From: Candidatus Omnitrophota bacterium
GTDB taxonomy: Bacteria > Omnitrophota > Gorgyraeia > Gorgyraeales > Gorgyraeaceae
Assembly (NCBI GenBank): GCA_042571405.1
Contig: JBHPHU010000002.1
Coordinates: forward strand, 2,787 to 66,786
DNA length: 64,000 nt
Reading direction: 5' to 3'
Shown in pieces: positions 2,192-49,824 of this stretch. The notes below the pieces were generated by a model. It ran no database searches. It worked only from the letters and a program-made list of their open reading frames with translations, and was not told where the DNA came from. The translations under genes and the position numbers were made by a program. Numbering within the stretch: the first letter of the stretch is position 1; every line of letters starts with the position of its first letter.

Positions 2192-3225
2192 TGAAGTGTG
2201 ACATTATTATACCAGTCTGGAATTTGAAGGAATATACCCAGAAGTGCGTAGAGAGCCTTATTAAGAATACTGACTATTCATTTCGGTTGATTATGGTAGA
2301 TAATGGAAGCGAAAAAGAGACAAAAGAATATCTGGAGAGCTTAAAAGCAGATACGAGGTTAAATGATTATGCCCTTATCAGGAATGAGAAAAATCTTGGA
2401 TATACAAAAGCGACTAATCAAGGAATGAAAATAGCCGCTTCAGAATATGTATGTTTATTAAATAACGATACGCTTTTACTTGAGGGATGGCTTAGTGAAA
2501 TGATAAAAGTAGCAGAATCCGCAGATGATATAGGCATAGTTAATCCTTCGAGTAATAATCTAGGCGATTATAAGCCCTGGCGTCTGTCACTGGAAAATTA
2601 TGCTCTGGAACTTAGGCGGAAATATTCCGGCCAGTATATAGAGATGGCAACAGCAATAGGCTTTTGCTTTCTCATAAAAAGAGAGGTAATTGAAAAATTA
2701 GGAATACTTAGCGATGAGTATGGAGATGGTAATTTTGAGGATACCGAGTATGCTATAAGGGCTATGCGTAATGGTTATAAATCAGTGATTGCCAGAGGCT
2801 CCTATGTGTATCACAGAGAGCATGCCTCCTTTAACATGATAAAAGACTGGGAAGACATGTTTGTGGATAATCAGAAGCTGTTTCATAAATTATTCGGGAG
2901 CCCTAAAAGAATTTTATACGTATTGACAAAAGAGAATAAAGATTATTTTAAAGAACTAAAACAAGAGACATATGATTTAGCCAGCAAGTGCAATTGGGTA
3001 ACAGTTTTTATAAAAGATTCTATCCCCAAGCTGGATTTGGCGGAACATACCAATATAAGGATTATTGGAATGATGGGGGCGTTTTTTAGATGGCGCTGCG
3101 TACACAGAGTTTTGATAAAAAAGAAGAGATACAGTCATATTTTTACAGATGACAAAAAATTATTCAATATTCTTAAGAGATCAGAAGGACTGCATAAAGC
3201 AGAGGTAAAATGCCAGGCAGGTTAA
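2191..3225 (+). CDS. Family 2 glycosyltransferase
   Basis: GT-A signature IIIPVWN...MVDNGS...LLNNDT (DxD-like). GTG start abuts the previous stop. Confidence 0.85.
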   Translation: MKCDIIIPVWNLKEYTQKCVESLIKNTDYSFRLIMVDNGSEKETKEYLESLKADTRLNDYALIRNEKNLGYTKATNQGMKIAASEYVCLLNNDTLLLEGWLSEMIKVAESADDIGIVNPSSNNLGDYKPWRLSLENYALELRRKYSGQYIEMATAIGFCFLIKREVIEKLGILSDEYGDGNFEDTEYAIRAMRNGYKSVIARGSYVYHREHASFNMIKDWEDMFVDNQKLFHKLFGSPKRILYVLTKENKDYFKELKQETYDLASKCNWVTVFIKDSIPKLDLAEHTNIRIIGMMGAFFRWRCVHRVLIKKKRYSHIFTDDKKLFNILKRSEGLHKAEVKCQAG

Positions 3226-10927: not shown

Positions 10928-10976
10928 GAAACCACAGAGGACACAGAGATTTTTTAGAATTTTTCTCTGTGACCTC
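10928..10976 (+). repeat. 'CACAGAG' hairpin repeat, copy A
   Basis: GAAACCACAGAGGACACAGAG, then an A/T loop, then TCTCTGTGACCTC. Begins 15 nt after the radical-SAM gene stop. Confidence 0.8.
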
Positions 10977-11131: not shown

Positions 11132-11175
11132 GAACACAGAGAAAACCATAAAAACCTCTGTGCTCTCTGTGGTTT
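11132..11175 (-). repeat. 'CACAGAG' hairpin repeat, copy B (inverted relative to A)
   Basis: GAACACAGAG..CCTCTGTGCTCTCTGTGGTTT is the reverse complement of the copy A/C core. Convergent with copy A across about 155 bp of AT-rich spacer. Confidence 0.8.
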
Positions 11176-16607: not shown

Positions 16608-16654
16608 CTGTACAGACGCGTTGTCTGCCGGAGGCAGACAACGCGTCTGTACAG
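16608..16654. repeat. 22-bp-stem perfect palindrome ('CTGTACAGACGCG' family, copy 1); probable terminator or REP-like element
   Basis: CTGTACAGACGCGTTGTCTGCC-gga-GGCAGACAACGCGTCTGTACAG starts at the base immediately after the stop codon of 15504..16607. No T-tract follows. Confidence 0.85.
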
Positions 16655-19162: not shown

Positions 19163-19948
19163 ATGGCAGATGATAGGTTAGCTTTGTCTGTGGTGACGAT
19201 TGCGTACAATGAAGCACATAGAATAGGTGATTGCCTTAAGAGTACGCAGGGTTGGGCAGATGAGCATATAGTGGTGGATGATTTTAGCTCTGATAAGACA
19301 GTGGAGATTACAAAAAAATTTACAGATAAGGTTTTTCAGAGAAAGATGGATGTCGAGGGCGTGCATCGAAACTGGGCCTACCAGAAGGCAAAGAACGAAT
19401 GGGTGCTGAGCCTGGATGCAGATGAGACTGTTACAGAAGAGTTGAAACAGGAGATAAAAGATGCTATAAAGGGTGATGCGGGATTTAATGCCTATAGTAT
19501 ACCGCTAAGGACATATATCGGGGATTATTGGGTGCAGCATGGCGGCTGGTATCCTGCTGGAAAGCTCCGTCTTTTTAAGAGATCAAGGTTTAAGTACGAG
19601 GAGGTTGGCGTGCATCCAAGGATAATTCTCGACGGTAAATGCGGGCATCTGACAAAGGATATTATACATAGGGGTTATGTGGATTTTTCAGACCTTTTTT
19701 CTGGACTTAATCGCCAGACAGATCTTGAGGCAGAGAAGTGGTTTAATGAGAAACGAAAGATCGGTGGTTTAAAGATGTTCCGGAAGGCCTGTGACAGGTT
19801 TTTCCGCAGCTATGTTAGAAAAAAAGGATATAAAGACGGAGTAGTAGGCTTTGTTATAGCAACTCATGGCGCAATGTATCAAATTTTAAGTTTCGCAAAA
19901 TACTGGGAAAAGCAAAGAAACCACAGAGAGCACAGAGAAATGTTATAG
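19163..19948 (+). CDS. Family 2 glycosyltransferase
   Basis: LSVVTIAYNE...VVDDFSSD...LDADE (DxD). The last ~11 codons (KQRNHREHREML) are encoded by the CACAGAG repeat. Confidence 0.85.
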   Translation: MADDRLALSVVTIAYNEAHRIGDCLKSTQGWADEHIVVDDFSSDKTVEITKKFTDKVFQRKMDVEGVHRNWAYQKAKNEWVLSLDADETVTEELKQEIKDAIKGDAGFNAYSIPLRTYIGDYWVQHGGWYPAGKLRLFKRSRFKYEEVGVHPRIILDGKCGHLTKDIIHRGYVDFSDLFSGLNRQTDLEAEKWFNEKRKIGGLKMFRKACDRFFRSYVRKKGYKDGVVGFVIATHGAMYQILSFAKYWEKQRNHREHREML

Positions 19949-19971
19949 TTTAAAAAAATCTCTGTGGTCTC
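19917..19971 (+). repeat. 'CACAGAG' hairpin repeat, copy C
   Basis: GAAACCACAGAGAGCACAGAG...CTCTGTGGTCTC. Overlaps the 3' end and stop codon of the GT2 gene. Confidence 0.8.
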
Positions 19972-19976
19972 GTATT

Positions 19977-20118
19977 TTGCTTAAATGCGAATATCGAAAT
20001 CCGAATCTCGAAACAAATTCGAAATTGAAAATTCTAAATCTTAAATACTATGTTTAGAATTTTAGATTTAGAATTTATAATTTGTTTCGAATTTCGATAT
20101 TCGAATTTCGGATTTAAA
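19977..20118. repeat. ~140-bp 'CGAAAT' long palindromic element, copy a
   Basis: Left arm is ttaaatgcgaatatcgaaatccgaatctcgaaacaaattcgaaatt. Right arm is aatttgtttcgaatttcgatattcgaatttcggatttaa. The right half closely matches copies b and c. Confidence 0.85.
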
Positions 20119-20130
20119 CATATATTATTA

Positions 20131-20178
20131 GAGCACACAGAGAAAAACTATAAAAAACCTCTGCGTACTCTGTGGTAT
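20131..20178 (-). repeat. 'CACAGAG' hairpin repeat, copy D (inverted relative to C)
   Basis: GAGCACACAGAG...CCTCTGCGTACTCTGTGGTAT. Convergent with copy C; the pair brackets CGAAAT element a. Confidence 0.75.
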
Positions 20179-20217
20179 ATTTTTTTGACAATACGGAAGA
20201 CAACGAAAGGAGAAAAA

Positions 20218-21258
20218 ATGAAAATATTGGTTACTGGCGGTGCCGGGCTTGTGGGCTCTCATACCGCGGAATATTATTCCAAAAAGGGCGACGAGGTTAT
20301 CGTGCTGGATAATTTAATGAGGTCCAATTTATTTGGATACAACAAAGAGAGCGTGGAGTTTAACTGGAATTATCTGGGAGAACTCGAGAATGTAAAGCGG
20401 ATAAAGGGAGATGTGAGGGAAGAAAAGGATGTGATGAAGGCGCTTGGCAGCGGAGTAGATGTGGTCATACATACTGCAGGTCAGCCTGGAGTGCCTCTTT
20501 CCATGAAGATTCCAAGAGAGGACTTTAGCATAAATGCCTATGGCACACTTAATGTTCTCGAATGCCTCAGGCAGGTATCTCCAAAGGCCGCATTTGTGTA
20601 TTGCTCCACAAATAAAATTTACGGAGAGAATGTGGATAGTATTAGCCTGGAAGAAGAGGAAACAAGATACAGGTATAAAACTAAAAAAGGTGTCCCTGAG
20701 ACGCTATCTATGGATTTGACCGGACATACCCCATACGGCGCTTCAAAATACACAGGCGATATCTATACGCAGGAATACGGACATCTCTACGGTATGAAGA
20801 CAGCGGTATTTCGCATGTCGTGTATCTACGGCACCAGGCAGTTTGGTTTTGAGGATCAAGGTTGGGTGGCGTGGTTTGTCATAGCGAACCTGACAGGTCA
20901 GCCCATAGTTGTTTATGGCGACGGTAAGCAGGTAAGGGATTTATTGTACGTGGATGATTTAGTAGAGGCCTATGATAAGTTTATACACGGCGAGGTAAGG
21001 CATGATGTATTTAATATTGGCGGCGGGCCAAGGAATACCACTTCACTGCTGGAGTTTATAGCGTTAATAGAAAATAAAACAGGTATTAAGTTCAGGAAAG
21101 TGGATTATAAAGAGTGGCGGCCAAGCGACCAGAAGGTATACATATCAGATATTAGCAAGGTTTCGAAGGCGCTCAGCTGGAAACCAAAGATTACGCCTGA
21201 GAAAGGGTTGGAAAAATTGGTCGAATGGGTAGGCGGCAATACGAAATACTTTATATGA
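20218..21258 (+). CDS. NAD-dependent sugar epimerase/dehydratase (SDR family)
   Basis: ILVTGGAGLVGSH and YGASKYTGD (YxxxK). AAAGGAG RBS precedes ATG 20218. The track's 5' extension (20050-20217) is read-through of repeats. Confidence 0.88.
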   Translation: MKILVTGGAGLVGSHTAEYYSKKGDEVIVLDNLMRSNLFGYNKESVEFNWNYLGELENVKRIKGDVREEKDVMKALGSGVDVVIHTAGQPGVPLSMKIPREDFSINAYGTLNVLECLRQVSPKAAFVYCSTNKIYGENVDSISLEEEETRYRYKTKKGVPETLSMDLTGHTPYGASKYTGDIYTQEYGHLYGMKTAVFRMSCIYGTRQFGFEDQGWVAWFVIANLTGQPIVVYGDGKQVRDLLYVDDLVEAYDKFIHGEVRHDVFNIGGGPRNTTSLLEFIALIENKTGIKFRKVDYKEWRPSDQKVYISDISKVSKALSWKPKITPEKGLEKLVEWVGGNTKYFI

Positions 21259-21272
21259 CACAGTTATATTAG

Positions 21273-21353
21273 TTCTCGACTTCGCTCGAACAATATTGGA
21301 CCCCGAGCAGCGTCGAGGGGCTTCGAGCGAAGGCCGAAGGCCTGAGTCGAGAA
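21273..21353. repeat. 'TTCTCGACTTCGCTCGAA' palindromic element, copy 1 (expanded)
   Basis: Left arm at 21273-21290. Right arm is split (cttcgagcgaag ... gtcgagaa) by an inserted ggcc-gaa-ggcc hairpin. Shares 25 nt (gttctcgacttcgctcgaacaatatt) with copy 2. Confidence 0.8.
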
Positions 21354-21367
21354 GATAGGAAAAATTC

Positions 21368-21919
21368 ATGAAAGTCATATTTTTAGACAGAGATGGGGTA
21401 ATAAATAAGGATCCTGGCGGTGGAGATTATATAAAGTCATGGAAGGAGTTTGAGTTTTGGCCGGGCTCTATAGAGGCCATAAAAAAACTAAACGCAAATG
21501 GCTACGAGATCTTTGTGATATCTAACCAGGCAGGAGTCGGCAGGGGGATTTATTCGCAAGCTTCACTTGATGAGCTTACAAAAAATATGCTCAGCGAGAT
21601 TGAAAAGCAGGGCGGGAGGATAAGATCTGTTAGTTATTGCACGCATAAGCCGGATGCGGGCTGTGAATGCAGAAAACCAAAAACAGGCATGATAAAGAAG
21701 GCGACAGAGGGGCTTGACGTGGATTTTAAAAATACGTATTTTATAGGTGACTCACATCGTGATGTGGGCGCCGGCAATGGCATGGGGTGCAAGACTATAC
21801 TTTTATTGACGGGAAAAGAGGATGCTGACGATGCGAAGAACTGGACGCTCAAACCTGATCTCATAAAAAGAGATTTAATGGAGGCGGTTGAATGGATATT
21901 AAAGCAAGAACGAGAATAA
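21368..21919 (+). CDS. gmhB: D-glycero-D-manno-heptose 1,7-bisphosphate phosphatase
   Basis: HAD motif FLDRDGVIN, Zn-binding CTHKPDAGCECRKPKTGM, and GDSHRD. Confidence 0.88.
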   Translation: MKVIFLDRDGVINKDPGGGDYIKSWKEFEFWPGSIEAIKKLNANGYEIFVISNQAGVGRGIYSQASLDELTKNMLSEIEKQGGRIRSVSYCTHKPDAGCECRKPKTGMIKKATEGLDVDFKNTYFIGDSHRDVGAGNGMGCKTILLLTGKEDADDAKNWTLKPDLIKRDLMEAVEWILKQERE

Positions 21920-22059
21920 TAGGAGAGCTTTTTAAATTTTTGTGGGAAAGAAAATTGTGGTGGATGATCCCGATAGTGGTGGTACTTTTGTTGTTCGGGC
22001 TTTTGATATTTTTCACGCAATCATCAGCGGTAGCTCCTTTTATTTATACATTATTTTAA
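21892..22059 (+). CDS. Small membrane protein, DUF5989-like (55 aa; not in supplied ORF track)
   Basis: My translation: MDIKARTRIIGELFKFLWERKLWWMIPIVVVLLLFGLLIFFTQSSAVAPFIYTLF*. It has an amphipathic N-terminus, one TM segment and the family-like C-terminal APFIYTLF. GAGG lies upstream of the ATG. Overlaps the gmhB 3' end by 28 nt. Confidence 0.6.
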   Translation: MDIKARTRIIGELFKFLWERKLWWMIPIVVVLLLFGLLIFFTQSSAVAPFIYTLF

Positions 22060-22077
22060 ATTTATAGCATGTTTTTA

Positions 22078-22220
22078 TTGCTTAAATCCGAAATACGAAA
22101 TCCGAATTTCGAAACAAATTCGAAATTAAAAATTGGAAGGCCTTAAACAATGTGTTTTGAATTTTGGATTTAGAATTTATGATTTGTTTCGGATTTCGAT
22201 ATTCGATTTTCGGATTTATA
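22078..22220. repeat. ~140-bp 'CGAAAT' long palindromic element, copy b
   Basis: ttgcttaaatccgaaatacgaaatccgaatttcgaaacaaattcgaaatt ... gatttgtttcggatttcgatattcgattttcggatttataaa. Confidence 0.85.
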
Positions 22221-22252
22221 AATATATTGTTTAGAAGAAAGCTTTAATTTAT

Positions 22253-23374
22253 ATGAAAATATTAGTTGTACACGCATATGCGGGAATTGGACACAAGAAG
22301 GCAGCAGAGGCAATAGGAAAGGCCTTGCTTGATGCTGGAGCTGAAACTAAAGTTATAGATGTATTGGACTATACAAACGCCTTTTTCAAATTTTCGTATC
22401 CCAGAGTTTATCTATTCCTTATAAACAAGATACCTTTTTTATGGGGGTGCTTGTATTATTTCTTTGATCTCAGATTAGTGGATTTCTTTTGTGCTCCGGT
22501 GAGAAGATTTTTTCATAATCTGCAGGCAGATGAATTCATAAGGTTTGTGATTGAGAAAAATCCTGATGTTATAGTCTGCACGCATTTTCTTCCCGCGGAA
22601 GTAGTCTCCGCATTAAAGAAAAAAAACATTTTTAATGGCAGGCTCGTAACAGTCATTACGGATTTTTTACCACATTCTTTTTGGCTGGCAAGGCAATCAG
22701 ATTATTTTATAGGCGCGGTAGAAAAGACAAAGAAAGAACTAATAAAGCGGGGGATAGAGAAGGAGCGTATAAAGACATTCGGCATCCCAACAGACTCTGT
22801 GTTCAGTGTTTCAAAAGGCCGTAAGCCCTTAATAAAAAGACTGGGCCTTAAAGAAAATTGTTTCAACCTCCTCATTATGGGTGGCGGATTTGGAACAGGT
22901 CCTGTAAAAGAGGTAGTTAATGCTATTTCTAATCTGGGATCAAAGATGAAGGATGGTTTGCAGGTAGTGGTTATATGCGGGAAAAATAAGGCCTTGCTTA
23001 AAGATTTAAAAAAGATAGGCGCAAGTTCAGAGATTGAGCTGAGCGTTTTTGGTTATATGAATAATATTGACGAGTTTATGGAGGTGAGCGATTTAATAAT
23101 AACAAAGTCTGGCGGACTAACTGTTTCAGAGTCGCTTTCAAAGAGATTGCCTATGATAATAATACAGCCGATACCCGGACAGGAGACAAAAAACTGTAAA
23201 ATACTCGAGAGCTACGGCGTGGCAGTGCGCGCGAATACAGTAGGCCAGATAATGGATCATATAAGATATTTTGTATCTGATCCAAAGAAGATAACAGGTA
23301 TGAAGACCCAGATAAATCTACTGGCATATCCTGATGCCGCAAAGGACATAGCGGACCTGGTGATGAATATATGA
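22253..23374 (+). CDS. MGDG-synthase-family (GT28-like) diacylglycerol glycosyltransferase
   Basis: N-terminal MKILVVHAYAGIGHKKAAEAI is typical of the MGDG_synth/UgtP-like domain. C-terminal GT-B half has TKSGGLTVSE. Confidence 0.75.
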   Translation: MKILVVHAYAGIGHKKAAEAIGKALLDAGAETKVIDVLDYTNAFFKFSYPRVYLFLINKIPFLWGCLYYFFDLRLVDFFCAPVRRFFHNLQADEFIRFVIEKNPDVIVCTHFLPAEVVSALKKKNIFNGRLVTVITDFLPHSFWLARQSDYFIGAVEKTKKELIKRGIEKERIKTFGIPTDSVFSVSKGRKPLIKRLGLKENCFNLLIMGGGFGTGPVKEVVNAISNLGSKMKDGLQVVVICGKNKALLKDLKKIGASSEIELSVFGYMNNIDEFMEVSDLIITKSGGLTVSESLSKRLPMIIIQPIPGQETKNCKILESYGVAVRANTVGQIMDHIRYFVSDPKKITGMKTQINLLAYPDAAKDIADLVMNI

Positions 23375-24090
23375 AAATAGATATAGTGAAAAAAACATCC
23401 GGAAAAGTTTTAAGCCTTGTTAAGATCTTGGGGAGGATTGCAGATGAAGAGGGCGCGCGTGTTTATATAGTAGGCGGTCCTGTACGGGATATGCTGCTTG
23501 GCGTCTCTAATTACGATCTGGATTTTGTTGTAGAGGCAGACGCCATAAAATTCAGCGAAGTTTTAAATAAGACCTTGAAGGGGAGATTGACTGTCCATAA
23601 GGCCTTTGGCACAGCTACGATCGCGTATAAAGATTTCAGGATAGATGTAGTGACTGCGAGAAGCGAATCCTATGAACATCCTGCCGCTTATCCTGATGTG
23701 GAGCCAGCGACAATAAAGGAGGATTTGTTCAGGAGAGATTTTACTATAAACGCCATGGCCATAATTATAAATAAGAAGGGTTTCGGAGAGCTGATTGATT
23801 TTTATGGCGGCCTGAAAGACCTGAAAAAAGGTATTGTAAGAGTCATGCATGATAAAAGTTTTATGGATGACCCGACTCGCATATTCAGGGCTGTCAGGTT
23901 TTCGAGCAGGTTTAATTTTAAGATAGAATCTCATACAAAAAAATTAATGAAAGAGGCAGTCCTTGCGGGTTTTTTGGGAGAGGTGAACCGCGGAAGGATT
24001 AAGAAAGAGATGGAACTATTTTTAAAAGAAGATGATCCATTGAAATACCTAAGGGTATTTTCTAGGTTGATAGCACGTTTTAACCACTAA
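23371..24090 (+). CDS. tRNA nucleotidyltransferase/poly(A) polymerase-family protein (head and neck only, short)
   Basis: GGPVRDMLLG...DLDFVV catalytic head and RRDFTINAMA motif. Only 239 aa, ending immediately before CGAAAT element c. Confidence 0.7.
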   Translation: MKIDIVKKTSGKVLSLVKILGRIADEEGARVYIVGGPVRDMLLGVSNYDLDFVVEADAIKFSEVLNKTLKGRLTVHKAFGTATIAYKDFRIDVVTARSESYEHPAAYPDVEPATIKEDLFRRDFTINAMAIIINKKGFGELIDFYGGLKDLKKGIVRVMHDKSFMDDPTRIFRAVRFSSRFNFKIESHTKKLMKEAVLAGFLGEVNRGRIKKEMELFLKEDDPLKYLRVFSRLIARFNH

Positions 24091-24095
24091 TATGT

Positions 24096-24223
24096 ATATA
24101 AATCCGAAACTCGAAATCCGAAATCCGAGACAAATTCGAAATTCGAAGTTCGAATGTTTTGAATTTTGGATTTAGAATTTATGATTTGTTTCGAATTTCG
24201 ATATTCGTATTTCGAATTTAAGT
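24096..24223. repeat. ~130-bp 'CGAAAT' long palindromic element, copy c
   Basis: tataaatccgaaactcgaaatccgaaatccgagacaaattcgaaatt ... gatttgtttcgaatttcgatattcgtatttcgaatttaag. Ends 8 nt before the rbfA RBS. Confidence 0.85.
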
Positions 24224-28901: not shown

Positions 28902-29291
28902 ATGATAAAAAATAGCTTTAAGACATACAAAATTATAATAGGTGTCTTTACGCTGACATTGATCGCGCTTTTATATGTCAATCAGCAGGTGCTTATATAT
29001 CAGATGGGCTTGAAGATCAAGGATAACCATCAAGTCTATTCAAAGATTGTTGACCGCAATAGGATCTTAGTATATAATGTACTTAATTTAAAATCACCTG
29101 TCAGCCTCGAGGAGAAACTTTTAGCAAAGAAGGTCGAGTTGGGCATGCCCCACAAATGGCAGGTGGTCAAACTTGAGAGTTCCCCAAAGAAGTTTGTTAG
29201 CAAAACGATAGTAAGAAAAGGTCTCTTTGCCAATCTGTTTGCAGTAAGTAGGGAAGCTGAGGCCAGCCCGATTGTTAATTTTATTAAATAA
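28902..29291 (+). CDS. ftsL: Cell-division protein FtsL-like (small bitopic membrane protein)
   Basis: Single N-terminal TM segment (IIIGVFTLTLIALLYV), 129 aa, in the canonical slot between rsmH and ftsI. Confidence 0.65.
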   Translation: MIKNSFKTYKIIIGVFTLTLIALLYVNQQVLIYQMGLKIKDNHQVYSKIVDRNRILVYNVLNLKSPVSLEEKLLAKKVELGMPHKWQVVKLESSPKKFVSKTIVRKGLFANLFAVSREAEASPIVNFIK

Positions 29292-29294
29292 ATG

Positions 29295-29397
29295 CACAGA
29301 TGATCACAGATAAAAAAAATACAGATGATCACAAATAAAGTTATCTGCGATCATCTGTAAAGCTTTGCAGTTGCTATGCAATCTGCGATCATCTGTG
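29295..29397. repeat. Nested inverted-repeat element built from four ~16-nt 'ACAGATGATCRCAGAT' units
   Basis: Direct units at 29295-29311 and 29321-29336; inverted units (ATCTGCGATCATCTGT) at 29343-29358 and 29381-29397. Each has a GATC core. Lies in the ftsL-ftsI gap. Confidence 0.8.
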
Positions 29398-29425
29398 TAT
29401 TAACGAACGAAGTGAGTTAATAGCT

Positions 29426-37399: not shown

Positions 37400-37430
37400 G
37401 CTGAAGGCTGAAGGCTGAAGGCTGAAGGCT
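37400..37430 (+). repeat. Tandem heptamer (GCTGAAG) x4.4 preceded by its partial inverse
   Basis: gcttctcagctg-tcag-cagCTGAAGGCTGAAGGCTGAAGGCTGAAGGCT ends 1 nt before the murG ATG (37432). Confidence 0.85.
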
Positions 37431-44608: not shown

Positions 44609-44630
44609 TTGGTTGTATGGAATTTCAATG

Positions 44631-44674
44631 TTCTCGACTTCGCTCGAACAATATTCTTCGAGCGAAGTCGAGAA
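44631..44674. repeat. 'TTCTCGACTTCGCTCGAA' palindromic element, copy 2 (perfect 18-bp stem)
   Basis: TTCTCGACTTCGCTCGAA-caatatt-(c)TTCGAGCGAAGTCGAGAA lies 23 nt after the proC stop. Confidence 0.85.
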
Positions 44675-44698
44675 GAATTAATTTAAAGGAGAAAGAAG

Positions 44699-45625: not shown

Positions 45626-48373
45626 ATGGATTACAAGAAGACATTAAATTTACCGAAGACTGATTTTCCAATGAGGGGAAGTCTGCCTCAGAAAGAGCCT
45701 GCCATTCTTGCGGAATGGGAGAAGCAGGACATATACACGAAGATTATCGAAAAGCGAAAGTCTTCTCCAAAGTATATACTGCACGATGGCCCGCCATACG
45801 CGAATGGCAATATCCATATAGGCCACGCCTTGAACAAGACTCTAAAAGATATCGTTATAAAATTCAAAACAATGCGCGGCTTCCAGGCTCCATATGTTCC
45901 TGGCTGGGATTGTCACGGCATGCCTATCGAGCACCAATTATTTAAGGAATTAAAGAAGACAAAGCACGACGTAGACCAGGTAGAATTCAGAAAAATGGCG
46001 CATAAATTCGCTATGAAGTTCGTTAATCTGCAGAAGGAAGAATTTAAGCGCCTTGGTATATTTGGAGACTGGGATAATCCGTACCTTACCTTAAAGCCTG
46101 AATATGAAAAGGAAATAGTAGCCAGCTTCAATAAGCTCGCAAAAGACGGCTATGTTTATCGAGGTCTTAAGCCAATCAACTGGTGCGCCAGATGCGAGAC
46201 TGCTCTTGCAGAGGCAGAGGTGGAATATGAAAACCATGTCTCACCGTCGATATTTGTTAGGTTTGCTATAAAGCCACAAGCCACAAGCCACAAGCCACAA
46301 GCCTTTCTTGTGTGGACCACCACTCCATGGACTTTGCTTTCCAATGTTGCGGTTGCTGTGCACCCTGATCTTGAATACATTGAATTCAAAAGCGACAAAG
46401 ATGAAATTCTGATTTTCGCAAAAGACCTGCTCGATGCCGTTAAAGAAAAAACAGGTTTAAAGGGAAGCATAGTAAAAACCTTTAAAGGCAAAACGCTCGA
46501 AGGCCTTGTTGCAAGGCACCCGTTTTTAAATCGCGATTCAAAAGTCGTGCTGGCAGAGTATGTCTCAAATGAGGATGGTACAGGTTGCGTACACATAGCG
46601 CCTGGACATGGCCAGGAAGATTATAATGTGGGCCTGAAATACAATCTCCCTGTTATCATGCCCGTTGATGATAAAGGAAGGTTTGTAAAGCTGAAGGATT
46701 ACGAAATACCCGATTCTATCGCAGGCAAAAATGTCTTTGGATCGAATGAAACAGTTCTTGGAATCCTCAGTGATAAAAAATCTCTTTTATATTCTGAAAA
46801 GACTACGCATTCATATCCGCATTGCTGGCGATGCAAACAACCTCTGTTGTTTCGCGCGACAAAACAGTGGTTTGTCGGAGTAGATAAAAACAATCTTCGC
46901 TCAAAGACTCTCAACGAGATTAAAAAGGTCAAATGGGTGCCTGCTTTTGGCGAAAAACGAATCTCTAGTATGGTGGAACTCAGGCCTGACTGGTGCCTGT
47001 CAAGACAGCGTTACTGGGGCGTGCCAGTACCTATCTTATATTGCTCCTCATGTGATTCCGAGATCATAGATGAAAAAGTTATGAAGAATATCGAAGAGCT
47101 TTTTGGAAAACAAGGCTCTGATATCTGGTTTTTGAAAGACGAAAAGGACCTTCTACCCAAAGGTTTTAAATGTCCGAAATGCAAGGGCGATAAATTTAAA
47201 AAAGAAACAGATATACTGGATGTATGGTTCGAGTCAGGCGCAAGCCATCAAGGTGTCTTAAAAATCCGAAAAAACTTAGGTTTTCCAGCTCAACTTTATC
47301 TTGAGGGCAGTGACCAGCATAGGGGTTGGTTTCAGACTTCTCTATTGGTTGGTATGGGTGTGGCAGGAAGAGCGCCATTTGAAAACGTGCTTACACATGG
47401 TTTTGTCGTTGACGGAGAAGGTAAGAAGATGTCCAAATCATCCGGGAATGTCATTGCGCCGCAAGAAATTATTTCAAAGAGAGGCGCGGATGTATTAAGG
47501 CTGTGGGTAAGTTCTTCATCTTATTTTGACGATGTGAAGATATCCGAGGAGATCCTGCAGCGTACAGTAGAGGCTTACAGAAAATTTAGAAACACGGCAA
47601 AATTTATACTAGGCAACATCTCAGATTTTAACTATGAAAAGGATGCCATTGACAGGAAGGACATGCTTGAGATAGATAGGTGGGCGTTGTCGCGGCTAAA
47701 TTCTGTCTTGAAAGACGTGACAGATGCCTTTGAGAGATTTTCATATCATGAGGTTGTCAGCTCACTATATAGATTTTGTATTATGGACATGTCGAGTTTT
47801 TATCTTGATATCTTAAAGGATAGACTGTATACTTTTGGCCGTGCATCAAAAGCGCGGCGTTCAGCTCAGACAGCGCTCTACCGGATTCTTGATGCGCTGG
47901 TAAGGGAACTTGCTCCGCTTATCCCGTTTACCGCAGAAGAGATTTGGCGGCACTTTAAGGCGGCGGGTTCGGTGCATCTTTTGGATTGGCCAGAGGTAGA
48001 TGAAAAGGCAGTGGACATTGACTTAGAGAAAGATTGGCAAAAATTGAAACAACTCAGAGAAAGCGTCTTAAAGGAGCTCGAAGAAAAACGTATAGCCAAG
48101 ATCATAGGCAGTCCGCTGGATGCAAAAATAATACTTTACATAAAGAATGATTTAGAGTATAATTTGCTCTCTAAATACCTGAATGAGTTACCGTCGCTTT
48201 TTATAGTGTCGCAGGTAGAGTTGAAAAAGGCCGAAGACAGGAAGATCGAGGTCGGCAAAGCAGATGGCAAAAAATGCAGTCGCTGTTGGAACTGGAATGA
48301 TTTTGTAGGTAACGACAGCGTTCATCCAACGCTTTGCAAGAGATGCAAGGATGTTGTAGCGGAAGGGAGCTAA
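45626..48373 (+). CDS. ileS: Isoleucine--tRNA ligase (type 1, C-terminal Zn-finger)
   Basis: HIGH (NIHIGHAL), KMSKS (KKMSKSSGN), a CP1 editing domain, and C-terminal CSRCWN...CKRC. Confidence 0.97.
46272..46303 (+). repeat. In-frame tandem heptanucleotide repeat (AGCCACA x4.5) inside ileS
   Basis: aAGCCACAAGCCACAAGCCACAAGCCACAAGCC is read in rotating frames as [11 protein letters not shown], just before the conserved WTTTPWTL block. Confidence 0.9.
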
Positions 48374-49780: not shown

Positions 49781-49824
49781 CCCCTGTACAGACGCGGTGT
49801 CTAGACACCGCGTCTGTACAGGGG
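49781..49824. repeat. 44-nt perfect palindrome ('CTGTACAGACGCG' family, copy 2)
   Basis: CCCCTGTACAGACGCGGTGTCT|AGACACCGCGTCTGTACAGGGG. Shares the core CTGTACAGACGCG.TGTCT with 16608-16654. Confidence 0.85.

Follow-up and report, generated by a model that had tools for sequence, protein, structure and literature searches.

Why do three similar, long palindromes sit in the spacers between housekeeping genes of an Omnitrophota genome, and what kind of element are they? The first-pass annotation of the 64-kb stretch of DNA analysed here (hereafter, the window) had reported three palindromic copies with highly similar right halves, each able to form a long imperfect stem-loop from short repeat units, and had likened them to MITEs or to REP/BIME-like repeats. 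The descriptive part of this account was borne out. Searches with blastn-short and with a 23-mer pattern (up to 3 mismatches allowed; 0 chance matches expected in 64 kb) returned exactly three copies, all on the + strand, and no further copies in the window. Their nhmmer limits, arms and neighbouring genes are as follows:

Copy a: 19982..20116, + strand; ORF-less hairpin element; nhmmer 87.6 bits; RNA fold -46.2 kcal/mol, z -7.8
Copy a site: between the stop of a GT2 gene (19948) and the ATG of an epimerase gene (20218)
Copy a left arm: 19982..20047, + strand; AAATGCG AATATCG AAATCCG AATCTCG AAACAAA, then inner units
Copy a right arm: 20056..20116, + strand; includes TTTGTTTCGAATTTCGATATTCG; last unit CGGATTT
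Copy b: 22083..22218, + strand; nhmmer 98.9 bits; RNA fold -45.3 kcal/mol
Copy b site: between the stop of DUF5989 (22059) and the ATG of an MGDG-synthase-like gene (22253)
Copy b left arm: 22083..22144, + strand
Copy b right arm: 22156..22218, + strand
Copy c: 24099..24220, + strand; nhmmer 90.3 bits; RNA fold -41.1 kcal/mol
Copy c site: between the stop of a PolyA_pol-head gene (24090) and the ATG of rbfA (24242)
Copy c left arm: 24099..24154, + strand
Copy c right arm: 24165..24220, + strand

The gene order is GT2, copy a, epimerase ... DUF5989, copy b, MGDG_synth, PolyA_pol head, copy c, rbfA, which agrees with the neighbouring gene assignments made earlier (epimerase, MGDG-synthase-like, rbfA); an exact-protein look-up for two window proteins gave no matching record. 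Three copies within 4.2 kb of the 64-kb window have a probability of ~0.013 if placement is uniform. The copies share from 86% (a/b) to 93% (right halves) identity and score 88-99 bits against the nhmmer profile on the + strand vs. 63-66 bits on the - strand. Their arms are arrays of 7-nt units (AAAyNCG / CGNrTTT, by TRF), and each copy folds into a long imperfect hairpin with an RNA MFE of -41 to -46 kcal/mol (z -4.7 to -7.8), a stability reached by 0 of 200 shuffles. The rbfA Shine-Dalgarno sequence, AGGAGG, lies immediately beyond the right end of copy c. On the other side of this copy, the 239-aa PolyA_pol gene had been taken for a shortened CCA/poly(A)-polymerase gene, but the gene is equally short in relatives without the element, where it lies directly 5' of rbfA; hence, it is naturally short in this lineage and a truncated CCA-adding enzyme gene was rejected. 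Terminators and promoters at the copies were also rejected, with no terminator-like site found there.

A family of heptamer-built hairpins across bacterial phyla

More than 119 MAG genome stretches, representing 11 phylum-level groups among the matches listed and including complete chromosomes (Dehalogenimonas, Nitrospirales), contain the right-arm 23-mer TTTGTTTCGNATTTCGATATTCG. Overall, the family ranges over at least 12 bacterial phyla, with carriers that include CPR, Chloroflexota, Planctomycetota, Desulfobacterota, Nitrospirota and Omnitrophota, so that the prospect raised in the first-pass annotation, i.e., that a census might find the element absent elsewhere, clearly does not apply. 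The family consensus begins and ends sharply (AAAT...ATTT), with no conservation in the flanks, and ORF-less copies measure 120-170 bp, with arms of ~60 nt. Positions 1, 2, 6 and 7 of the heptamer are invariant at 93-99% and positions 3-5 are variable, which gives CG..AA every 7 nt; these conservation estimates are biased for the right arm, since family copies were gathered by the exact right-arm 23-mer. The variable positions are mostly unpaired in the hairpin, and the stems are broken every 7 nt by internal loops of 1-3 nt.

Arm pairing was assessed by single-sequence folds and hand-specified pairing; RNAalifold on a MAFFT alignment missed the long hairpin because loop lengths differ. The outer arms showed no covariation, with 79.9% paired and thus no better than shuffles (a weak test, as the right arm is fixed by the search pattern), and selection for base pairing as such is thus not demonstrable. 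Nor did the stability of the hairpin show a strand bias (-41.6 kcal/mol for the sense and -40.3 kcal/mol for the antisense strand; p=0.28). Rfam 15 gave 0 matches at the gathering threshold and, below it, only spurious plant/animal miRNA hairpin models, while a full-text literature search with the repeat strings gave unrelated primers only.

A profile search of the carrier loci found 163 family places in 806 kb, and 100 of 107 full copies lacked any spanning long open frame. Solo arms adjoin ordinary genes, with no other cargo among them. Copies are more alike within genomes (identity 0.745; window trio, 0.825) than between genomes (0.661), and one delta-proteobacterial MAG has six copies with a common loop in unrelated flanks. 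That is, ORF-less units have multiplied within genomes. Orientation relative to neighbouring genes is unbiased (58 same vs. 54 opposite; 21 to 17 in a second count), and the position of the window copies shortly 5' of the next gene, from which the first-pass annotation had inferred probable 5' UTRs, is hence not a strand-specific 5'-UTR feature.

Empty sites in close relatives

The window copies have empty counterparts at two of their sites, as the comparison of related contigs revealed. The site b junction measures 1-5 nt in six relatives (L136, L129, L130, L131, L135 and L137; amino-acid identity to L136 is 85-96%) vs. 193 nt here, and the site c junction 12-50 nt in three relatives (L130, L131 and L134) vs. 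151 nt here. The proteins that flank the empty junctions are 60-96% identical in the relatives. The copies have inserted between co-transcribed housekeeping genes, in spacers that are otherwise very short.

A four-helix-bundle gene between the arms

In longer members, the family arms bracket a gene for a ~120-aa four-helix-bundle protein (PF05635 / TIGR02436, 23S rRNA intervening-sequence protein), and this is the sole recurrent ORF between family arms. Three loci showed arms around a PF05635 ORF (L047, L053 and L063), and six more that were fetched by protein homology alone (L120, L122, L125, L161, L162 and L163) had family arms on both sides in every case (6/6), i.e., the arms flank the gene in 9/9 loci with DNA. 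The arms pair across the ORF (dG -32 to -103 kcal/mol, z -4 to -11), an arm starts 0-8 nt past the ORF stop codon, and the cassette gene points the same way as its two neighbours in 8/8 contexts checked; in L163, the gene sits between two complete hairpins. The PDB match of the cassette protein is the four-helix-bundle protein 2RLD, and PF05635 is homologous to Avd of diversity-generating retroelements (DGR; PMC10053308). No four-helix-bundle gene was found in the window or in the loci of Omnitrophota relatives, and homologues in the plasmid collection were only 30-36% identical and without clear family arms. The PF05635 gene of ORF-bearing members ties the family to 23S rRNA intervening sequences (IVS) and not to IS-derived MITEs. 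It also qualifies the earlier statement that the elements carry no ORF, which is true of the three window copies but not of the family. The two forms may be related through loss of the gene from the cassette, or through capture of the gene by the hairpin.

A parallel architecture was observed at the PolyA_pol/rbfA junction of L151, where a GxxExxY ORF (TIGR04256 / PDDEXK_3) lies between inverted arms of ACAGATGATCAC units. An ORF-less palindrome built from the same units also lies in the window:

29293-29405: ORF-less palindrome of ACAGATGATCAC units

Both the protein (nuclease fold) and the repeat unit of the GxxExxY cassettes differ from those of the four-helix-bundle cassettes, and no GxxExxY gene was found in the window or in Omnitrophota relatives except for the ORF in L151. 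In the literature on PF05635, TIGR02436, S23p, GxxExxY and IVS, we found no description of the arms or of the element, nor of GxxExxY cassette arms.

Proposed mechanism and alternative hypotheses

Given that the arms are common to ORF-bearing cassettes and ORF-less copies, the window copies are best read as MITE-like derivatives of an IVS-type cassette. We consider it probable that the family is one of widespread, selfish cassettes of intergenic regions, to which the trio belongs as non-autonomous members lacking the ORF; such cassettes would be cut by RNase III, and their heptads would be recognised by a protein. A full-length member consists of the four-helix-bundle gene with a ~60-nt inverted arm of tandem heptamers on either side (AAAyNCG ... 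CGNrTTT), and the window copies retain both arms, with just a short loop where the gene would be. The arms would pair in the operon transcript into an imperfect duplex of ~55-60 bp, to be cut by RNase III in the same way as the 23S rRNA intervening sequences of equal architecture and ORF family. Having removed itself from the transcript, i.e., at the RNA level, the element would be tolerated between cistrons. By this analogy, RNase III processing of the element is plausible; internal loops every 7 nt could hinder the enzyme. The invariant CG..AA every 7 nt would serve as a recognition array for a protein, most economically the four-helix-bundle pentamer that the element itself encodes; supplied by a master copy assumed to be present in the genome, this protein would act in trans on ORF-less copies.

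Alternatively, the copies might be conventional MITEs, i.e., IS deletion derivatives whose inverted arms would be recognised in trans by the transposase that moves them (DDE or other), with the four-helix-bundle gene being a mere passenger. The comparison with MITEs made in the first-pass annotation does capture a dispersed, ORF-less palindromic repeat with empty sites and intragenomic amplification, and the terminal inverted repeats, small size, many copies and both insertion orientations fit as well. However, checking the flanks for target-site duplications, as the same annotation had advised, revealed none that was consistent, whether in 72 full copies or in a subfamily of high identity whose ends are sharply defined, and no transposase adjoined any of about 160 copies. 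Further, the four-helix-bundle gene is the only recurrent ORF between the arms, solo arms lie beside ordinary genes, and 60-nt heptad arrays are unlike a 15-30-bp transposase end. Hence, we view a transposase-driven MITE as unlikely.

The arrays could also act at the DNA level, as operator-, centromere- or nucleoid-type sites to which either the four-helix-bundle protein or a protein of the host binds, with the hairpin as a by-product of the inverted arrangement. Conservation of the CG..AA motif rather than of pairing (i.e., mostly unpaired variable positions and no covariation), together with the absence of strand bias, is what such sites would show, and the omega repressor, which binds contiguous 7-bp heptads, offers a parallel. 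Nonetheless, full-length members always have inverted pairs that exactly bracket the ORF, and the arrays occur in operons of unrelated function in many phyla while orthologous sites in close relatives are empty, which means that they are no part of host regulation. We thus give this possibility little credence in its own right; it is compatible with the selfish-cassette hypothesis if the binder is the four-helix-bundle protein.

It is very unlikely that the host maintains the copies for the benefit of the downstream genes, be it as cis-regulatory structured RNA (leader, attenuator or riboswitch-like) or to stabilise or terminate the transcript. While the window copies lie 19-100 nt 5' of start codons on the coding strand and their hairpins have very high stability, the genes that follow them are unrelated to one another, orientation is random across the family, and neither an Rfam match, nor a terminator-like site, nor covariation was found; the empty junctions in relatives with similar flanking proteins largely refute this explanation. 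Finally, integron attC sites and local duplication noise can be practically dismissed despite the imperfect palindromes of attC-like length in consecutive gaps and a single orientation in the window, because the flanks are housekeeping genes in conserved synteny, the window has no integrase, the ends are AAATCCG / CGGATTT vs. RYYYAAC / GTTRRRY in attC, and the family recurs in more than 119 unrelated genome stretches.

Comparison with known systems

The 23S rRNA IVS of Leptospira, Coxiella burnetii and Xanthomonas likewise have a PF05635 ORF as the loop of a long terminal-inverted-repeat stem, and are likewise sporadic, horizontally acquired and without a transposase; the hairpin-bounded S23p ORF of IVS is cut out by RNase III (PMC4990558). 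The IVS are located in helix 25 or 45, whereas the window copies and the nine cassettes lie between protein-coding genes. The arms here are cross-phylum, ~60-nt arrays of CGAAA-type heptamers vs. a 28-bp stem in the Coxiella IVS (IVS arms were compared by description), and ORF-less derivatives of ~135 bp are abundant in the family, unlike in 23S rRNA IVS. Correia/NEMIS (Neisseria), ERIC (Enterobacteriaceae) and RUP (Streptococcus pneumoniae) elements are likewise ORF-less imperfect palindromes of 100-150 bp that are intergenic, transcribed and found in either orientation, and Correia elements are processed by RNase III. However, all three are confined to a genus or family, and are neither linked to a four-helix-bundle gene nor built of heptads; Correia and RUP also have target-site duplications and IS-like ends, in contrast to the family described here.

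REP/BIME/REPIN sequences with their RAYT are likewise intergenic, palindromic and multi-copy, with inverted pairs forming hairpins. REP units are 20-40 nt long with a GTAG-type 5' motif, tied to RAYT and largely vertical within a species group. No REP motif or RAYT-like ORF was found in the window or the loci, where the unit is a 7-nt repeat array, and the likening to REP/BIME was abandoned on the grounds of size, sequence and the lack of RAYT association. The Avd protein of DGR belongs to the same family as the cassette protein, but Avd acts with a neighbouring reverse transcriptase and a template repeat, and the cassettes examined here have no adjoining reverse transcriptase.

Implications

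It is tempting to speculate, albeit with low confidence, that heptad hairpins and four-helix-bundle cassettes together constitute an unrecognised class of transposase-less mobile elements, of which the 23S rRNA IVS would be the rRNA-resident special case. An Avd-like pentamer would recognise the heptads and drive copying, perhaps via a hairpin intermediate made of RNA or ssDNA and with a cellular or DGR reverse transcriptase, and would mobilise gene-bearing and ORF-less forms across at least 12 phyla; cassettes with GxxExxY or other small ORFs, which have arms of their own repeat units, would represent sister families.

To our knowledge, rRNA intervening sequences and their small ORFs (S23p / four-helix-bundle, GxxExxY) have remained for ~30 years without a known function or mobility mechanism. 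Our results show that cassettes of the IVS kind also live outside rRNA, in ordinary operon spacers, where they probably spawn ORF-less hairpins and likely affect operon mRNA processing. They also provide handles on this problem, namely a candidate protein with a putative recognition site (the four-helix-bundle pentamer and CG..AA heptads) and hundreds of natural insertion/empty-site pairs. For genome annotation, the family would account for recurrent, unannotated intergenic palindromes of 120-170 bp in MAGs, and genes annotated as "four helix bundle protein" may be flagged as selfish insertions rather than operon members.

Distribution and identity of the elements

Our results show that the three palindromic hairpin elements of the window were inserted there and that they are ORF-less representatives of a repeat family found across phyla; the family's long members have these same arms and are cassettes of a four-helix-bundle gene. 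Exactly three copies were found in the 64-kb window by direct and inverted repeat detection, blastn-short, the family profile and a 23-mer pattern that tolerates at most 3 mismatches, confirming the places assigned in the first-pass annotation; the gene calls around them were likewise upheld by Pfam. IleRS homologues assign the window to Candidatus Omnitrophota, the top-scoring named matches being without exception Omnitrophica/Omnitrophota, at identities reaching 77%.

Family copies in the window, each found by repeat detection, blastn-short, the 23-mer pattern and the family profile
19982-20116, + strand, copy a, between the GT2 and epimerase genes
22083-22218, + strand, copy b, between the DUF5989 and MGDG_synth genes
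24099-24220, + strand, copy c, between the PolyA_pol-head gene and rbfA

The copies share one orientation (profile scores of 88-99 bits on the + strand vs. 63-66 bits on the - strand), and their clustering inside 4.2 kb of the 64-kb window has a probability of ~0.013 under uniform placement. The high similarity proposed for the right halves was measured at ~93% identity; between copies a and b, identity is 86.5% over 141 nt. The long stem-loop potential was borne out by folding, since each copy forms a single long imperfect hairpin (a, -46.2; b, -45.3; c, -41.1 kcal/mol) with z-scores of -7.8, -6.1 and -4.7, respectively, and no shuffled sequence was as stable. In every copy, Tandem Repeats Finder resolved both arms as tandem heptamers, with units AAATCCG/AAATTCG in the left arm and TTTCGAA/TTTAGAA in the right. 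Copies a and b further have in common ~11 nt (TTTTGCTT-like) left of the family core, at 19972-19982 and 22073-22083, and ~14 nt (AnAnATATATTnTT) to its right, at 20117-20130 and 22219-22232; the left flank of copy c (24086-24098) resembles the reverse complement of this right extension. Judging from these shared flanks, therefore, the unit copied in the window's genome may exceed the core seen across phyla by ~25 nt.

When one genome of each GTDB species was scanned, the exact 23-mer TTTGTTTCGNATTTCGATATTCG occurred in at least 119 genome stretches, all from MAGs. Among the stretches listed, record titles assign ~67 to Desulfobacterota or 'delta proteobacteria', 15 to Planctomycetota, 9 to Patescibacteria/CPR, 7 to Acidobacteriota (Aminicenantes), 4 to Nitrospirota (including one 4.6-Mb chromosome), 2 to Calditrichota and 1 to a complete Dehalogenimonas chromosome; 10 further contigs are labelled Proteobacteria, some of them possibly mis-binned, and Binatia, Victivallales and Ignavibacteria contribute 1 each. 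Omnitrophota (the window) and Bacteroidetes (a locus fetched by protein) are additional carriers, and the 23-mer also occurs on five IMG/VR contigs. Complete genomes that carry the family include Dehalogenimonas CP139473.1 and Nitrospirales OY820905.2. The left side of the family consensus reads AAATCCG AAGCACG AAATCCG AAATTCG AAACAAA TTCAAAT GACCAAA ATTCAAAAC and, after a loop of 0-40 nt, the right side reads GTTTTGAACATTTGAATTTTGGTCATTTGGA TTTGTTTCGGATTTCGATATTCG GATTTCGGATTT; the consensus is sharply bounded, and conservation does not extend into the flanks. A profile search of 806 kb of carrier loci, which had been collected via the exact 23-mer anchor in the right arm, yielded 163 places, of which 107 hold a full copy, 38 a solo right arm and 18 a solo left arm. 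No long open frame runs across 100 of the 107 full copies; genes in the loci were called by a longest-ORF heuristic.

The constraint on these arms falls on a motif recurring at 7-nt intervals through two inverted arrays, not on a perfect helix, with 23 right-arm positions being fixed by the search pattern. This follows from the near-invariance (93-99%) of heptamer positions 1, 2, 6 and 7 (AA..CG) and from pairing that is no better than in shuffles: in-register pairing holds for 79.9% of cells in the 35 outermost positions per arm, with essentially no compensatory change there. Heptamer positions 3-5 are variable and mostly unpaired.

Empty sites and insertion behavior

That the window elements are insertions is evident from the empty sites for which relatives were searched. 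Among 28 related loci retrieved from metagenomes with the MGDG-synthase-like protein as query, six (L129, L130, L131, L135, L136 and L137) have 1-5 nt between the DUF5989 stop and the MGDG start, vs. 193 nt in the window, and the flanking proteins of L136 are 85-96% identical to the window's. Similarly, at the site of copy c, rbfA follows the PolyA_pol-head gene after ~12-50 nt in L130, L131 and L134, vs. 151 nt in the window. The 239-aa PolyA_pol gene is equally long in these relatives and hence was not truncated by copy c. The encoded protein (23371-24090) consists of a PolyA_pol head domain without the CCA-enzyme body and seems to be a nucleotidyltransferase that is genuinely short in the lineage, given that its length and its position before rbfA are kept in several Omnitrophota relatives.

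Other insertions occupy the same junctions. The DUF5989/MGDG junction looks like an insertion hot spot, with an AbiEi/AbiEii toxin-antitoxin pair in L133 (735-2050) and an unrelated 116-nt GTTACGTAA-type palindrome in L155 (2548-2665); in L146, a relative at 40% identity, an independent copy of the family lies a short distance upstream of the MGDG gene, and a GxxExxY cassette is inserted at the copy c junction in L151.

Across the family, the short elements are oriented at random: 58 point the same way as the next gene and 54 the opposite way, and between co-directional neighbors the split is 21 to 17. Hairpin stability does not differ between the strands (-43.7 vs. -42.0 kcal/mol, p=0.12), with no bias toward the transcribed strand (p=0.28). 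The 51 copies with both neighbors within 300 nt lie between 38 co-directional, 10 convergent and 3 divergent gene pairs. Target-site duplications, for which the flanks were to be examined, were not visible among family copies. Copies resemble each other more within a genome than between genomes (0.745 vs. 0.661), the window trio reaching 0.825. In one delta-proteobacterial MAG, six copies, each on a contig of its own, have the same loop but unrelated flanks and, therefore, the ORF-less units multiply as such. Five of these six (L007, L011, L049, L096 and L098) share an 85-nt tail right of the element that holds a GC-rich stem-loop (CCGGGTCCTTTGGACCCGG), whereas L112 has the hairpin without the tail.

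Four-helix-bundle cassettes

In three loci (L047, L053 and L063; host labels Deltaproteobacteria, 'Alcaligenaceae' and Dehalogenimonas), the arms lie ~400-550 nt apart and enclose an ORF of ~120 aa. The ORFs of L047 and L053 match Pfam PF05635 ('23S rRNA-intervening sequence protein'), that of L053 also matching NCBIfam TIGR02436 ('four helix bundle protein') and PDB 2RLD, and that of L063 was assigned only through tblastn. Identity among the three proteins is 59-64%, despite the differing host labels. Homologues are abundant, with at least 8000 matches in the protein database, the best 120 of which are full length and 68-82% identical. As a test of generality, we fetched the contexts of seven homologues picked solely by the size of their contig, and family arms flank the gene on both sides in all six loci with DNA (L120, L122, L125, L161, L162 and L163). 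The arms begin 0-8 nt past the stop codon and pair across the ORF (dG of -32 to -103 kcal/mol, z of -4 to -11). Cassettes sit within operons (accB/accC, MoxR/DUF58, DUF58/BatA, PIG-L/DegT, T2SS-E/T2SS-F and pilin-like genes), co-oriented with both neighbors in 8 of 8 contexts checked. In L163, two complete hairpin elements (2341-2487 and 2869-3004) instead of single arms stand on either side of the gene, which hints that whole hairpins might bracket, and perhaps mobilize, genes. The 64-kb window itself has no four-helix-bundle gene. A distant one (36% identical) lies between cas2 and cas1, on the opposite strand, on a Nostoc plasmid (L164; NZ_CP040299.1, 27283-27639), and no clear family arms were found around it.

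Other repeats in the window

Several further repeats were observed. An ORF-less palindrome of ACAGATGATCAC units (29293-29405) lies between an ftsL-like ORF (28902-29291) and ftsI (from 29426), and the same units form inverted arms around the GxxExxY / PDDEXK_3 ORF at the PolyA_pol/rbfA junction of L151 (1168-1650); together they make up a second small-ORF cassette family that has an ORF-less derivative. A third palindromic family, built on CTCGACTTCGCTCGAA, occurs at 21270-21360 and 44621-44684 and in L131 (4070-4290), and no ORF tied to it was identified; it occupies the epimerase/HAD gap, which measures 109 nt in the window and ~15 nt in L130, and L131 has two copies in this gap. Four small CACAGAG...CTCTGTG hairpins (10933-10971, 11135-11171, 19922-19966 and 20136-20174; none expected by chance) form two direct pairs with a spacing of ~205 nt. 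The first pair encloses a 160-nt AT-rich segment only faintly resembling the element, and the second brackets copy a, its left hairpin overlapping the last codons of the GT2 gene; such pairs could represent a nested insertion or a composite unit. Two perfect palindromes with 22-nt arms and a common core, CTGTACAGACGCG, lie at gene ends (16608-16654 and 49781-49824) and could be terminators or another repeat family. Perfect tandem repeats of 7 nt are present at 37400-37430 (GCTGAAG, 4.4 units) and, within the IleRS gene, at 46271-46303 (AAGCCAC, 4.7 units).

Interpretation

Both attC sites or local noise and a reading as host cis-regulatory RNA are effectively excluded. Two other rivals, a classical MITE driven by a transposase and a DNA-binding array, are less likely than a cassette-derived element. 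Elements of this kind, i.e., IVS-like (23S rRNA intervening sequence) and MITE-like palindromic repeats, are already known; the present family differs from them in its heptad-array arms, cross-phylum conservation, location outside rRNA and ORF-less progeny. No Rfam 15 family matches the element, and in the literature searched, which did not extend to older IVS papers in subscription journals, the arms, the ORF-less derivatives and four-helix-bundle genes as operon-spacer cassettes are undescribed.

Avd, the accessory protein of diversity-generating retroelements, binds nucleic acid and RT. Since PF05635 is homologous to Avd (PMC10053308) and the motif is conserved, the heptads are a putative binding array for the cassette protein. 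In 23S rRNA IVSs, terminal inverted repeats form a stem whose loop contains the same ORF family and which RNase III excises (PMC4990558) and, by analogy, the transcribed hairpin of the present family may be cut by RNase III as well. Such cutting would make insertions between cistrons tolerable.
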